From an uncultured Gammaproteobacteria bacterium (GTDB lineage Bacteria > Patescibacteriota > Patescibacteriia > 2-12-FULL-60-25): 64,000 bases of DNA. The notes below the pieces were generated by a model. That model was given only the letters and a program-made list of their open reading frames with translations. It was not told the DNA's origin and did no database searches. Positions 49,358 to 53,933 of the stretch are shown in pieces; positions within the stretch are counted from its first letter, which is position 1; every line of letters begins with the position of its first letter. The position numbers were made by a program, and so were the translations under genes. Location: positions 63,489 to 127,488 of the forward strand of contig CAZOQS010000004.1 in assembly GCA_964582475.1 (NCBI GenBank), written 5' to 3'.

Positions 49358-50923
49358 ATGGTCCTATCTATGGACGCGTCCTTTGCAGCTACCCCCGTCT
49401 CACTTACGCCATCAGATCTTCGCGCATTGATGGAGAAGTTGTCTCAAGGATCGCTGACGCCCTTTCAGGCATCTGAACAAGCCTTGGGTGGTGAGGTATT
49501 GCTGACGCGAGATGCGGAATTATTTTTTGGAGAGGCACTGAAACACGGAGGTGCTCAAGTAGCGAATTTAATCGTCGACCATCTTTCCGTCTTGCGTGTT
49601 GGACATACGTCAGCATCAACCGCGAAATATTTAGGGAATCTCCTGCTCGATTATTCAACGGATCCAGATGTGAGTCGGAAGATTCTGGCTTGGTATCCTG
49701 ATTTTATCGATGTGCCAGCAATCCTTGAGCATCTTTCGATTCAGGATGAACGGGACCTCTCATTTTATCAGGAGTTATTTCGTCGACTCATTCGTGAGGG
49801 TGATAGCTATTCGGCGGGGGATCGTATTTCCAAACTGCTTGTTGCTGTCTTGAAACTTGCACCAGCCTGGATCGGTCGTCTACTGTCCGCGCTTGATCAA
49901 GTTCAGACGGAGATTGATTTAGAGCCATTTTTAAAGATGGCGGCCGAAATTGGTACCGCAAAAGAGGAGATTTATGAGCAGCTTCCGCTTATTGGACGGG
50001 TTGCGACTCAGCGAATGCGTTTGATGGATTGGGTCTTCCGTGTCTACCCGGAGCGGCGTATAGAGGCGCTCGGTAGAATCCTTGAACAAGCTCGCTTCAC
50101 TTCCATGAATGCGGAAGATGCCTTTGTTTCGCTTGCGCGTGGATTAAATACAAAGGATCTGCCTGCATTTACTCAGCTGCTTGAACGCTATCGAAAGCAG
50201 GAGGACTGGCCGCGGAAAGTGGTGATTGAGCTGCTCTACAATCCAAATATCCCAATGGAAGAGCTCGTTGACTCACAGCGTTCTTTTTCGCTGTATCGAA
50301 ATGTCATCAACTGTCTTTCCGACCTCTTGGATCGTACATCAGACGGAGATCGGTCACTCGATATCAAGCGCCTCCTCACGCGAATTGTCGATGATACAAA
50401 TTTCGGGACCTTGGACGTGACAACCTACAGTGCGCTCCTGTATGAAGTTTCACGTCGCAAGGGACAAGGAGATTTAAACCCGTTACGTATCTTGCTTCTG
50501 GAACGGATCGATTTCAAACACGCGACAATTTTTCATTCAGCCTTTTTTGAAGCGCTTCGAGGGTACTTTATTGAACCGATGCATGCGCAGCGTATCTTAG
50601 AAAAAATCGTCCGATATGGAAAATATCCGTTTCATGAGACGGATTTCCTCCTCCAACTTCTGGAGTGTGTAGACCAAGAAGTCTTTGCGAACTTTACGTT
50701 ACGGTATAGCCAAGCCCTTTTTGATACGGCCTACACGGCAGAGCGTTTCTACTTAGCTCTTGCGGGTACGCTCCCTGAGCGTTTTGCGCCGGTATATATG
50801 TTCCATCGAAAGATCTTTAAGCGTTCCTTCGCCAAGTATTCTGATACCGACAAGACGATTTACAAACTGTGTTGGCCGTATCTCTCGTTCGGTCAACGAT
50901 TCAAGGCGTTTATCTTTGGTTAG
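49358..50923 (+). CDS. Large all-helical cytoplasmic hypothetical protein
   Basis: 521-aa uninterrupted ORF with host-like composition. No recognisable motif. Confidence 0.6.
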   Translation: MVLSMDASFAATPVSLTPSDLRALMEKLSQGSLTPFQASEQALGGEVLLTRDAELFFGEALKHGGAQVANLIVDHLSVLRVGHTSASTAKYLGNLLLDYSTDPDVSRKILAWYPDFIDVPAILEHLSIQDERDLSFYQELFRRLIREGDSYSAGDRISKLLVAVLKLAPAWIGRLLSALDQVQTEIDLEPFLKMAAEIGTAKEEIYEQLPLIGRVATQRMRLMDWVFRVYPERRIEALGRILEQARFTSMNAEDAFVSLARGLNTKDLPAFTQLLERYRKQEDWPRKVVIELLYNPNIPMEELVDSQRSFSLYRNVINCLSDLLDRTSDGDRSLDIKRLLTRIVDDTNFGTLDVTTYSALLYEVSRRKGQGDLNPLRILLLERIDFKHATIFHSAFFEALRGYFIEPMHAQRILEKIVRYGKYPFHETDFLLQLLECVDQEVFANFTLRYSQALFDTAYTAERFYLALAGTLPERFAPVYMFHRKIFKRSFAKYSDTDKTIYKLCWPYLSFGQRFKAFIFG

Positions 50924-50926
50924 GAT

Positions 50927-52669
50927 TTAGTAGTTTGGAATGCAGGCCTCCAATTGTTCGAGTGTAGGTGGAGCGACGCTGTCTGTACGCGAAACGTTTC
51001 TGAGTTCCTGGCGAATGGAATCGGCTCGTCGTCTGGCGCCTGGGACCCCTCCACGACACCCAAGCTCAACGAATTTTTCAAGGAAGCAGTCGATGCGCTC
51101 GCTTTCGCTCGCACCTGAATGAGAGCGACAAGCCTCGAGCACGATTCCAAATCCGGCACCGCATCTTCCCGGGTTATTTGCGACGGTTGCCCACATGGCT
51201 TGGCCATAGGACGAACGAAAACCATGACTTGCGGCGGCTCTCACTCGCTGAGAGTATTTTTCGTACGAGTCTTGGAGCTGGGCGAGTGCGAACGCTCTCG
51301 TTGGGAGTGCAGTCTGAAGCATGTTTCGATAGTCCGCATTGCAAATAAACCCACGATCCGTCTGATTGGATGCGCAGAGTGCAGAGGCGGACGTGTCACG
51401 ATTGTTTCCGGCGGTCACGACGCGATTGTAAACAGCCGCATCTTTTTGTTGAAGTTTCCGCATTAATTGAGGGAGGTTTTGCTGCATATACCCTAAAATT
51501 CCGTAGGTACCTCCATCGAGCCCTTCAAGCGATCGGAACGTCTTTCCGGTACAGTTCCCAGTAACGGAAGCGAGGAATTGTCCATAAGAACCACCACATC
51601 TGCCAATTAGCGCTGGACAGGCGGGATCTGGACCTCCAACGATTGTGGTACCGCAGGAGACTTGGCTTTGGCAGGCAGCACACCAGACGGTGCTGTTGTT
51701 TGGTCGTGGTCGAGCGGCAAGTGTTTGCCGGCAAAAGCGTGCGGGCCCGGCTCCTGTCGCAGTCCCGGTCGCGCCTTCTTCGGCTGAGCGATCTGGGTCC
51801 GCATCTCTAGCGATGCTGTCATAGGCACTGTCGTCGGATGGTGGTATCGCTTGAACATGCTGGACGCGAACCGGATTCATTTCGACCAGCTTCGGATTGA
51901 TCGTCTTCAAGATCAAGAAGCTACTAAGAAGAACTACCAGCCCAATAAAGGCATCTTGGATAATCGTTTTCCCATCAGACACACCCGGAGCAGAAGCCGA
52001 CAGCATGTAGCGGAACCCTCCATAAACAATCATGATGGCTGCCAAAATCGCACCTAATCCAACGGATAGGCGATAAATACCCGAGATGTATTGCGCGAGA
52101 TAGGGGACGCTAATAATGCCACCCTCCTCGGTTGCGGGGGTGAAACGAACACCCGGGATTGGTACGGCGGGGTTTGGTGGGATGGGGGTGAATGGGCGTT
52201 GGGCGGCAGGCTCTGTTCCGCCCGCAATCGCCTCATCTGCCGGACTTTGGACCGTTGTTGTTGGAGGAGTGGTTGGGGGTGTTGCAGGAGGTGTGGTTGT
52301 GCCGGCTGCAGCGGCCCTTGTCGCACAGCTCGCCCGAACGGGATTGCTTCCGATCGCTCGATTGAGGCTTTCTGCAAACGACGGTTCACAGGCTCTGGAG
52401 ATCGTACAGCTAAAGACACTAGGATCAAATCGACCACTTAAAGGAGCGTTTTCGCAGCCTGAGCGTGCTTCTGATCGCTGGTCGCTGGTCGCTAAACTAG
52501 CAAGTTCGCTTGGAGACCTGCCTGAAACTATACCCGTCCCGGTGATGGTACAGAGACAGCTCGACGCTTGCGCGAACGCGAGACCAGGTATGGTCAGGCC
52601 GATAATCAAAAATGAGAGGGTCGAGACGGCGAGAAGATCCCTCAGACGCTTACTCCAATGAAGAGGCAT
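50927..52669 (-). CDS. Secreted Cys-rich protein with a central VirB2/TrbC-like (CPR 'T4SS pilin'-type) two-TM module and a large C-terminal domain
   Basis: Signal/TM at the N-terminus. PATPPTTPPTT linker. YLAQYISGIYRLSVGLGAILAAIMIVYGGFRYMLSA...AFIGLVVLLSSFLILKTINPKLV. C-terminal region of about 290 aa with LEGLDGGTYGILGY. ATG at 52669. Confidence 0.6.
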   Translation of the reverse strand: MPLHWSKRLRDLLAVSTLSFLIIGLTIPGLAFAQASSCLCTITGTGIVSGRSPSELASLATSDQRSEARSGCENAPLSGRFDPSVFSCTISRACEPSFAESLNRAIGSNPVRASCATRAAAAGTTTPPATPPTTPPTTTVQSPADEAIAGGTEPAAQRPFTPIPPNPAVPIPGVRFTPATEEGGIISVPYLAQYISGIYRLSVGLGAILAAIMIVYGGFRYMLSASAPGVSDGKTIIQDAFIGLVVLLSSFLILKTINPKLVEMNPVRVQHVQAIPPSDDSAYDSIARDADPDRSAEEGATGTATGAGPARFCRQTLAARPRPNNSTVWCAACQSQVSCGTTIVGGPDPACPALIGRCGGSYGQFLASVTGNCTGKTFRSLEGLDGGTYGILGYMQQNLPQLMRKLQQKDAAVYNRVVTAGNNRDTSASALCASNQTDRGFICNADYRNMLQTALPTRAFALAQLQDSYEKYSQRVRAAASHGFRSSYGQAMWATVANNPGRCGAGFGIVLEACRSHSGASESERIDCFLEKFVELGCRGGVPGARRRADSIRQELRNVSRTDSVAPPTLEQLEACIPNY

Positions 52670-52676
52670 ACGCGTA

Positions 52677-53933
52677 TTACAAACGCATCTTAATGAGCTG
52701 ACCGCTATTTCCATCTGTTACAAAGGCGGATTGCCCATCGCCTGAAACGCGCACTGCACGCACGGCTACGTTAGGGCCTGGATCGCCAAGTGGAGTGACT
52801 TGTCCATTTGCAAGATCGAGTTTGAAGAGTGTATCTGGGCCGACATCGAACAATGTTCGTTGTAAACCAGCTCCATTTGGCATTTCCTTTGGAACGCCAC
52901 AGATAACCGTTGTTCCATTTGCCCATGTGCATTTGTCTGCCCAGGTTTCGATACTCATACGTCGACGATTCGCGTTCACTTCATCGCCCGAGGCGCCACT
53001 CAACCAGAGAGAGGGGCGATAGCCTTCGTCACCGCTCCATACGCTGTACAGGAGCTGGGATCCATCCGGGGACCAATTTGGAGTAAAGCCACGTCCTTCC
53101 ACGATGAGACCTTTAAAATTCTCCTGATTTTTTCCGACGAGTAAAATCTGTTCACGATTTGCGCCCATGGCTTCGCCTGTTCGAGAAAAAGCGACGGTTT
53201 GGTTGTTCGGTGCCCAGCTTACCAATACCTTGTCCTGGTTATTCCCAAGTTCCTCAATTGGACGAGGTTCGGATCCGTCGCTGCCGGCAACGATTAAGAA
53301 GCGGTTGGTTGGGTTGCTCCCTAAGCTTTTGGCTACAATTTGATCATCGTCAGGGGAGAATTGAAGCTCTTGCCAATAGCGGGGGATGGTCGTTTGTTTG
53401 TCTTGGGAGAAGTCGTAGATCACCTGATTTCCATCTGGGAAGCCTAATACAGCTTTCTCGCTCTTGTTTCCCCAAGTGATGCGATCAACGTTTGGGAAAA
53501 CAGTTTCAGACAACGGAACCTTTGTTCCATCATCGAGGATAGAGTAAAAACGTCCATCATTTGGATCATAAAAACGAATCGCGTTTCCACCGCCTTTCGT
53601 TGTTGCGATAGGGAGGCGTACGTCTTGAGCGATTACCGACACGCGTGGCGCATCTGGTAGAAGCGAGTTATCCGGAAGCGTTGGAATTTCTCCTAGATCC
53701 ACCGATCCCGTATTCTGGGCCGGTTGGAGGCTTCCATCGCCCAAATTTCCAATCGTACCAGGCGTGCCATCCTGTGCACGTGGAAGGGAATTCCCTGTTC
53801 CAGGTAGTTGTGTTCCGGGAGTCTCCGTTGGTCGGATCGCTCGGAAAAAGAGCAGATACAACACCGTCGCGATCCCTACGACCGCGAGTATGAAGAGGAA
53901 CACAAAGAGCAGCTTCTTGCGACGTTCGTCCAT
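52677..53933 (-). CDS. Membrane-anchored TolB-like beta-propeller (PD40 repeats) protein
   Basis: N-terminal TM LLFVFLFILAVVGIATVLYLLFF. Repeats of the type SPDDDQIVAKS, WAPNNQTVAFS and WSPDGSQLLYS. Confidence 0.7.
   Translation of the reverse strand: MDERRKKLLFVFLFILAVVGIATVLYLLFFRAIRPTETPGTQLPGTGNSLPRAQDGTPGTIGNLGDGSLQPAQNTGSVDLGEIPTLPDNSLLPDAPRVSVIAQDVRLPIATTKGGGNAIRFYDPNDGRFYSILDDGTKVPLSETVFPNVDRITWGNKSEKAVLGFPDGNQVIYDFSQDKQTTIPRYWQELQFSPDDDQIVAKSLGSNPTNRFLIVAGSDGSEPRPIEELGNNQDKVLVSWAPNNQTVAFSRTGEAMGANREQILLVGKNQENFKGLIVEGRGFTPNWSPDGSQLLYSVWSGDEGYRPSLWLSGASGDEVNANRRRMSIETWADKCTWANGTTVICGVPKEMPNGAGLQRTLFDVGPDTLFKLDLANGQVTPLGDPGPNVAVRAVRVSGDGQSAFVTDGNSGQLIKMRL

Follow-up and report, generated by a model that had tools for sequence, protein, structure and literature searches.

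A VirB2-like pilin hairpin fused to a cysteine-rich head of predicted GH46-like fold in a Patescibacteria genome

Within a 64,000-nucleotide (nt) stretch of contig CAZOQS010000004.1 (C4) of assembly GCA_964582475.1, hereafter the window, a gene on the minus strand encodes a protein of 580 amino acids (aa), P0001, in which a two-helix hairpin of the VirB2-like pilin type is followed by a large cysteine-containing head. The genome, 96% complete, belongs to the Patescibacteria, or Candidate Phyla Radiation (CPR). The fusion of hairpin and head is genuine and conserved. Profile comparison confirmed the hairpin as a genuine member of the VirB2-like family T4SS_pilin (PF18895; T4SS, type IV secretion system), and the head is assigned, with moderate confidence, a fold like that of glycoside hydrolase family 46 (GH46), within the lysozyme superfamily. 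We see about an even chance that P0001 is a Sec-exported, membrane-tethered extracytoplasmic enzyme that cuts the cell wall with a GH46/lysozyme-like head. A preliminary description of this DNA had proposed a "pilin-anchored wall- or host-degrading enzyme"; the pilin-type anchor and the fusion have been borne out, the GH46-like predicted fold has gained moderate support, and hydrolase activity and incorporation into a pilus stay putative.

The gene lies in an uninterrupted open reading frame (ORF) of 595 aa (50927..52714, minus strand), and P0001 is read in one continuous frame from the ATG at 52669. This ATG follows the TAA of the upstream gene by 7 nt (...AAG ATG CGT TTG TAA tacgcgt ATG CCT...), and the N-termini of homologues (MPLPSIKRL, MALRLWVRL) align with its Met. 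Use of an in-frame ATG at 52714, 45 nt further upstream, would carry the ORF into the 3' end of the upstream PD40 gene; homologues favour 52669. Direct reading of the sequence shows a T immediately before ATG 52669 and no Shine-Dalgarno sequence. The parts of the gene are as follows (confidence values are the predicted local distance difference test, pLDDT, of AlphaFold2 models).

50927..52669, minus strand: whole gene of the fusion of pilin hairpin and predicted GH46-like head, P0001, 580 aa plus stop (ORF, translation; full-length homologues at 41-92% identity in independent assemblies)
52571..52669, minus strand: predicted signal peptide, aa 1-33, with basic n-region, hydrophobic core and ...GLAFA/QA cleavage motif (translation; AlphaFold2 helix 5-25; equivalent N-termini in homologues)
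52319..52570, minus strand: optional, predicted extracellular N-domain, aa 34-117, with six Cys within aa 38-115 (translation; AlphaFold2 mixed alpha/beta, pLDDT 60-74)
52199..52318, minus strand: Pro/Thr-rich stalk, aa 118-157 (PATPPTTPPTTTVQSP...), with PATPPTTPPTT from aa 128, predicted disordered (pLDDT 25-44)
51854..52198, minus strand: conserved module, aa 158-272, comprising the RPFxPIxPNPAVPIPGVxFT motif and the VirB2-like (PF18895) two-helix hairpin and ending ...KTINPKLVE (Pfam, hhalign, paralogue comparison)
52001..52069, minus strand: predicted transmembrane helix 1, ~aa 201-223 (LSVGLGAILAAIMIVYGGFRYML) (AlphaFold2 helix 190-226, pLDDT ~80-84; GGFxY motif common to canonical pilins)
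51899..51952, minus strand: predicted transmembrane helix 2, ~aa 240-257 (AFIGLVVLLSSFLILKTI) (AlphaFold2 helix 232-257; I237, D239, A240, G243, L244 ... N258, P259 invariant)
51683..51853, minus strand: acidic tether between hairpin and head, aa 273-329, predicted disordered (pLDDT 27-45; length varies among homologues)
50930..51682, minus strand: head, aa 330-580, mostly helical, 13 Cys, a family without annotation and with a predicted GH46/lysozyme-like fold (AlphaFold2, Foldseek, HMMER)
51488..51538, minus strand: signature motif F378-RSLEGLDGGTYGILG-Y394 of the head, in its small beta region, with consensus GLDGxT(F/Y)GI (21-member alignment)

The coordinates and the description of the gene given earlier, from the signal peptide, Cys-rich N-domain and PATPPTTPPTT stalk to the hairpin and the Cys-containing C-terminal region, were correct. 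Of the 14 Cys that lie C-terminal of the hairpin, 13 are in the head and one (C313) is in the tether. The N-domain has no family match in a Pfam search; it is present in P0001, P0003, P0005, P0008, P0012 and the C39-type P0016 described below, and missing from P0004, P0006, P0007, P0010, P0011 and P0013-15.

The same unbroken architecture was found in 14 protein clusters from independent NCBI, ENA, JGI and Logan assemblies, at identities down to ~41%. A search with the module, which considered only proteins of ~320-1015 aa so that short versions could not surface, yielded 36 clusters with proteins of 360-989 aa, and in each of 38 proteins whose tails were excised the tail had at least 251 aa. 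These results, together with a frame that is open throughout, counter the possibility, raised in the preliminary description, of a missed stop or frameshift; in such an assembly or annotation artefact a short pilin gene would have been run together with the gene of another, secreted protein. Such an artefact would agree with the existence of free-standing head versions in other phyla; we regard it as extremely improbable.

The pilin character of the module rests on several matches. The Pfam model PF18895 aligned with aa 194-255 of P0001 (profile positions 8-69 of 71; E=4e-4, 20.8 bits), under its 26.6-bit cut-off; the orthologue P0013 scores over the cut-off (27.2 bits), and several orthologues have precomputed PF18895 matches. 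In an hhalign comparison of aa 158-272 with a profile of seven clear canonical PF18895 hairpins from the same genome (A6), the probability was 97.1% and E=7e-11, with the GGFxYM and IxxAxIGL motifs aligned. Because of these matches and the two predicted helices we count the hairpin as a member of the VirB2-like family, known in Patescibacteria from a survey and a review (PMC12102498, PMC12857230); the preliminary description had already noted the resemblance. As is usual in this pilin family, P0001 combines a signal peptide with two hydrophobic helices and a short polar loop (translation, AlphaFold2), the linker being SASAPGVSDGKTIIQD. Since a signal peptide precedes the two transmembrane helices, the loop (aa 224-239) would face the cytoplasm. 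In Foldseek the hairpin matched only ATP-synthase c-subunit hairpins, a result regarded as uninformative. P0001 differs in size from a small pilin of ~100-150 aa that is essentially a hairpin alone, as the ~70-aa hairpin makes up ~12% of its 580 aa. The earlier statement that such pilins usually have ~100-150 aa fails in this genome, where 8 of 10 PF18895 proteins have 340-3394 aa.

The head was modelled twice with AlphaFold2, in the full-length protein with 15 sequences and as a domain alone with 20 sequences, including free-standing members derived from the loci studied. In both models the head is predicted with confidence (pLDDT 85-97; pTM 0.84 for the domain alone); it is mostly helical, and the signature motif lies in a small beta region. 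For both of them, the seven best Foldseek matches in the PDB were all GH46 chitosanases (4ILY, 4OLT, 1QGI, 7XH0, 5HWA, 4QWP, 2D05 and 1CHK over the two lists), and the alignments extended over 220-260 columns, nearly the entire enzyme (for example 4ily_B with E=0.049 and probability 1.00, and 1chk with a TM-score of 0.47). Apart from a GH24 muramidase, the PDB matches ranked below the GH46 entries were noise. In the viral library BFVD, one of the best matches is a phage protein annotated as "Glycoside hydrolase, family 46"; endolysins and the glycoside hydrolase of a Streptomyces phage were also among them.

The family of the head is rare. When 1.84 billion representative proteins were searched exhaustively with HMMER, only 36 clusters were recovered; several of them are CPR fusions, and among the others that were retrieved most stand alone, are ~300 aa long and carry signal peptides. 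A second homologue search from the domain alignment (A2) recovered few distant members. Free-standing head proteins occur in genome records of Burkholderia sp. Leaf177, Caballeronia, Ideonella, Stellaceae, Myxococcales, Verrucomicrobiae and Blastocatellia (Acidobacteria). Across 21 family members, eight Cys, K376, Q464, N498/N499, E522, R539 and R548 are conserved, the Cys being invariant, and G383, L384, D385, G386, T388, G390 and I391 of the signature are invariant or nearly so (D385 in 20 and T388 in all 21). Two free-standing copies of the head look broken: in an alphaproteobacterial metagenome-assembled genome (MAG) one is spread over several frames (L023:207-1237), and in Caballeronia one breaks off after GILDWTQD, where an unrelated stretch resembling a transposase C-terminus takes over (L024:425-976).

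The hallmarks of GH46 are a general-acid Glu that never varies and sits where a long N-terminal helix ends (E22 of CsnN174), a general-base Asp with a water-positioning Thr in the beta sheets of the minor lobe (D40, T45), and an Arg-Asp-Arg network on separate helices that touches the acid catalyst (PMC4663542). D385 and T388 belong to the beta region that follows a long helix, a place that may be comparable to that of the GH46 Asp/Thr pair, with a spacing of D-x2-T versus D-x4-T. By sequence conservation, E522, R539 and R548 on the C-terminal helices recall the Asp-Arg-Arg network of GH46 and lysozyme-like enzymes. The head may work like, or at least looks like, an enzyme of clan GH-I.

Several observations weigh against a wall-cutting enzyme of this kind. 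The GH46 scores in Foldseek are weak (E 0.04-0.9, probability 0.5-1.0, TM-score 0.35-0.50, rmsd 6-9 A). No sequence-profile link joins the head to GH46 or another hydrolase family: P0001, the free-standing members and all 15 alignment rows had no match in Pfam at E up to 10, NCBIfam and PHROGs gave no match, and phmmer and the family profile found only chance-level matches among PDB sequences. The GH46 profile PF01374 and the solved GH46 sequences likewise failed to match P0001 or the 15 family members (E up to 10), as did the family profile when compared with the PDB. The general-acid Glu has no conserved counterpart: P0001 has G/N at positions 371/372, and neither these two nor position 382 are constant within the family; the conserved subsite Asp of GH46 cannot be mapped on the head. 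The head is basic, with an isoelectric point (pI) of ~9. In addition, the fusion gene on C4 is outside any T4SS cluster, the ATPase candidates being on contigs C2 and C5. Because the acid Glu is not conserved and there is no match at the level of hidden Markov models (HMMs), we rejected membership in GH46: the head has a predicted GH46-like fold and is not a GH46 member. The resemblance noted in the preliminary description gains support at the level of the fold, by a confident model with GH46 chitosanases on top, if with weak scores, and by the viral matches, and not at the level of sequence. The Glu of "LEGLDG" (E382), which that description had matched with the catalytic segment, is an acidic position (Glu or Asp) in the CPR clade only; most free-standing members have an aromatic residue there.

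The variable acid position and the lack of a hydrolase HMM match in Pfam searches of the family would also suit a non-catalytic binding or adhesion domain of lysozyme-like shape, so that P0001 would bind a host wall polymer at the cell surface, as an adhesin or a receptor; the Ig-like or Cys-rich ectodomains of other PF18895 fusions in the genome have an adhesin-like appearance. This explanation, which we hold to be rather unlikely, is opposed by the (near-)invariance of D385, T388, E522, R539, R548 and K376 from CPR to Burkholderia and Myxococcales, a pattern typical of an active site. It is opposed also by the peptidase-like sister heads described below and by the genes that adjoin members of the head family. 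In a Blastocatellia MAG the free-standing head gene directly follows an endolysin-type M15 peptidase (phrog_894, E=3e-39), and in Burkholderia sp. Leaf177 it is ~0.7 kb from a GH19-like gene; these neighbours lend mild support to the wall-enzyme reading. In the latter genome (L020:5743-9281), a 208-aa secreted protein without family match is encoded 3 nt past the head gene, and the GH19-like gene and a gene for a 312-aa secreted protein of unknown family face it; together these genes may form a small cluster for secreted, wall-active proteins.

The module itself carries more than one kind of head. Clustering of the sequence after the second transmembrane helix gave three tail classes: the GH46-like head (14 clusters), a Peptidase_C39_2 domain and, behind it, a region that contains a GGHSAA motif (18 clusters), and a tail of ~280 aa with a conserved AAxC...GxHSVxF(L)GW (class III; 5 clusters). 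The GGHSAA region can be read as esterase-like, and class III, judged by its motif, may be of a papain/NlpC-P60-like Cys/His type. The sister heads, with Peptidase_C39_2 or the Cys...His motif, are probably wall-hydrolase-like too. The genome has one GH46-like copy and one C39-type copy (C2:94390-96870); tblastn found no class III paralogue in it. The gene of P0001 and that of the C2 paralogue are 84.5% identical in nucleotides over nt 379-821 (aa 127-274), and the two proteins are 92% identical over aa 173-272; the similarity ends a few residues past the second transmembrane helix, and the stalk sequence recurs identically in the paralogue. The contrast of 84.5% nucleotide with 92% amino-acid identity points to a duplication that is old and has been under strong purifying selection. 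With a nucleotide identity of only 84.5%, a recent conversion between the two genes was rejected. The view that a hydrolase is displayed here in an unusual way needs a qualification in this light: no pilin-enzyme fusion was found in the searchable literature, and P0001 is part of a broader pattern of three head classes on one module.

A constant N-terminal module with alternative C-terminal domains is also what polymorphic antibacterial toxins have, in which a constant trafficking module would carry swappable toxic heads, each with a cognate immunity protein. The strongly conserved module, the at least three unrelated head classes and the sharp identity break after the second transmembrane helix agree with this, and heads of wall-degrading kinds are common among type VI and type VII secretion system effectors. 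We nevertheless find it very improbable. No small same-strand gene that could encode an immunity protein lies downstream of the fusion gene; the next gene, 3 nt away, is convergent and encodes a cytoplasmic-looking protein of 521 aa, and at loci L013 and L014 of related genomes the fusion is followed by radA or another gene. In addition, there are only three main head classes, each orthologous and in fixed core-genome synteny beside a DEAD helicase or radA, and the paralogues split long ago, with many synonymous changes.

For the genome as a whole, the VirB4 and VirB6 profiles PF03135 and PF04610 gave no match. A VirB4-like ATPase at C2:60603-62495 (P-loop_TraG, 92 bits) was found only by AAA_10 and P-loop_TraG, and an ATPase resembling type IV coupling proteins lies at C5:12749-14956 (TrwB_AAD_bind). 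The earlier remark that no T4SS ATPase or channel genes are nearby agrees with this, the only ATPase candidates being on other contigs, although the window as a whole was not annotated. In a related, complete-looking genome (GCA_964598725.1), a 471-aa TrwB_AAD_bind, coupling-protein-like gene stands between adk and secY in the ribosomal-protein/secY region (L029:15896-17311).

These ATPases and the homology of the hairpin to PF18895 pilins bear on the possibility that the hairpin is a true T4SS pilin, pulled by a VirB4 machine into a VirB2-type filament whose enzyme heads decorate a "lytic pilus" that breaches the host wall. The strong purifying selection on the module between the paralogues speaks for it as well. 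In the conjugative pili that have been solved (F- and T-pilus), both pilin termini point outward. Patescibacterial pilin arrays are essential and a pilus has been anticipated (PMC12857230, PMC10633639); in the literature searched, however, no PF18895 protein has been shown to form one. The fusion gene and the VirB4-like gene are on different contigs, and a head of 250 aa plus the N-domain on each subunit would impede helical packing, leaving P0001 a minor subunit at best. We consider the lytic pilus unlikely. It is decidedly unlikely, in our estimate, that Patescibacteria possess filaments or membrane platforms of VirB2-like subunits with interchangeable wall-degrading heads, among them an unrecognised glycoside-hydrolase family of GH46-like fold; if true, the essential CPR T4SS would be coupled physically to the breaching of the host cell wall.

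Other PF18895 genes of this genome are clustered elsewhere. A tandem array of six (C3:122677-130349; L001, L003, L005-L008) encodes four large proteins (489, 694, 709 and 340 aa), in which Cys-rich ectodomains precede the hairpin, follow it or do both, and only one classical 134-aa pilin, and is followed by a gene for a 621-aa polytopic membrane protein without Pfam match. At C1:261004-273074 (L002, L004), two adjacent genes encode proteins with an N-terminal PF18895 hairpin, one of 661 aa with a Big_5 Ig-like domain and the other a giant surface protein of 3394 aa.

Under the wall-enzyme reading, P0001 would be exported by Sec and its signal peptide cleaved. The VirB2-like hairpin would stay in the membrane with the short loop on the cytoplasmic side and both flanks on the outer side, namely the optional Cys-rich N-domain on the Pro/Thr stalk and the 250-aa head on the acidic tether. 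The head, which is predicted to be two-lobed and mostly helical like GH46 chitosanases and the lysozyme superfamily, would be oxidised to ~seven disulfides, and the flexible tether of ~55 residues would let it reach the wall. There it may cut cell-wall glycan, more likely peptidoglycan than chitosan, with D385 and T388 of the GLDGxTxGI beta region and E522, R539 and R548 as a candidate active-site or cleft network. The head's basic character (pI ~9), a poor fit to a chitosan-binding cleft, makes chitosan a less likely substrate. Peptide stems would be cut by the C39-type and class III paralogues, and the wall in question could be the cell's own or that of the host to which it is attached.

The gene upstream of the fusion and the spacer between the two were annotated as follows.

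52677..53933, minus strand: upstream partner P0002, a 418-aa membrane-anchored PD40 beta-propeller protein with an N-terminal transmembrane helix (PD40, 22.7 bits versus a 20.9 cut-off)
52670..52676, minus strand: spacer tacgcgt, 7 nt, from the stop of the PD40 gene to the start of the fusion gene (sequence read directly)

Probably co-transcribed with the fusion gene, the propeller would act as a membrane-anchored partner of P0001. The preliminary description had called this neighbour TolB-like; the membrane anchor, the PD40 match and the 7-nt spacing hold, and identity with TolB does not. The TolB model TIGR02800 matched only residues 200-299 of P0002 with 26.3 bits, and TolB orthology was rejected because this partial match is far under the equivalog cut-off of 343. 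P0002 shares PD40-type propeller repeats with TolB; in contrast to TolB, it has an N-terminal transmembrane anchor in place of the periplasmic N-domain, no Tol-Pal genes are in view, and the organism is of the monoderm type.

The association with the propeller, which the preliminary description had brought up, is conserved, with a PD40 orthologue of 416-419 aa upstream of the fusion gene in six of seven relatives (L012, L013, L014, L016, L029/L030 and L031). In L012, L016, L029/L030 and L031 the order DEAD helicase, PD40 propeller, fusion, convergent ~520-aa helical protein and NAGPA is kept, while the identity of the fusion protein drops to ~41% across these loci. In L013 and L014 the propeller is followed by a 217-225-aa anchored protein at the position equivalent to the DsbA-like gene of the present genome; next in L013 come a C39-type fusion and, immediately after it, the GH46-like fusion, in L014 only the latter is present, and radA is downstream in both. 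The present genome shows a split arrangement: C2 carries the DsbA-like gene (Thioredoxin_4, 75 bits) and a gene for a 365-aa membrane protein together with the C39 fusion and radA, and the window carries the propeller and GH46-like fusion. The DsbA-like gene belongs to the ancestral operon, and it and the Cys content agree with extracytoplasmic disulfide-bonded heads.

The stops of the fusion gene and of the convergent gene for the 521-aa helical protein (49358-50923, plus strand) are 3 nt apart (window 50923-50927), with no room for a terminator, and this convergent pairing is kept in L012, L016, L029 and L031. Four MAG records titled "uncultured Gammaproteobacteria bacterium" (L012-L015) carry Patescibacteria-type pilin fusions, and their taxonomic labels look wrong.

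Cultivated Patescibacteria attach to host cells, and in Southlakia epibionticum the T4SS and the VirB2-like pilin array are essential for a reason that is unexplained (PMC10633639, PMC12857230). Most CPR genomes with such pilins have no recognisable VirB1 wall hydrolase; "other glycosidases" have been proposed as VirB1 replacements in Patescibacteria, and Southlakia cannot do without the homologues of peptidase and lysozyme that are encoded beside virB4 (PMC12102498). The family described here is a concrete candidate for how Patescibacteria cells open a wall, their own or the host's. Its head stands for a rare, unannotated and apparently disulfide-rich family, found in CPR fusions and in secreted proteins of Burkholderia, Myxococcales, Acidobacteria and Verrucomicrobia, which may come to be recognised as a new family of glycoside hydrolases.

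P0001 can be compared with three known systems. The VirB2-like pilins of Patescibacteria (PF18895), such as the six-gene array of Ca. Southlakia epibionticum ML1 (PMC10633639), resemble it in the signal peptide, the GGFxYM...IxxAxIGLxxxxxSF hairpin and profile homology; they come from the same bacterial group and likewise occur as several paralogues per genome. P0001 differs from them in the added 250-aa enzyme-like head, the optional preceding Cys-rich domain and a gene position away from virB4. Pilins of this type have been treated as small proteins, with no such fusions reported (PMC12102498); in our literature search PF18895 was named only in that survey of Patescibacteria T4SSs and in a structure-clustering preprint, neither of which reports enzyme fusions.

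The GH46 chitosanases (CsnN174, 1CHK; SACTE_5457, 4ILY; OU01, 4OLT/4QWP; MH-K1, 1QGI) are the best and near-exclusive structural matches of the head. According to the predicted model, the two may share a helical two-lobe layout, a small beta region after a long helix with Asp and Thr in it, and acid and Arg residues on C-terminal helices; the head differs in the absence of HMM similarity, the non-conserved acid Glu, a D-x2-T instead of a D-x4-T spacing, seven probable disulfides, a basic surface and the membrane tether. For uncharacterised "cluster E" GH46 proteins with peptidoglycan-binding modules, a wall-polymer substrate has been proposed (PMC4663542), and the head is likened to these in its likely wall-polymer substrate, peptidoglycan being the more probable.

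The VirB1-class hydrolases of monoderm T4SSs, such as PrgK of pCF10 and TraG of pIP501 (PMC12102498), are wall-degrading, T4SS-coupled and often glycosidase and Cys peptidase in one. In contrast to their SLT/lysozyme and CHAP domains, ordinary transmembrane anchor and location inside the T4SS cluster, P0001 has a head of another fold family, a pilin-type anchor and a gene outside such a cluster, and the putative glycosidase and Cys peptidase would be divided between two paralogues on the same hairpin.

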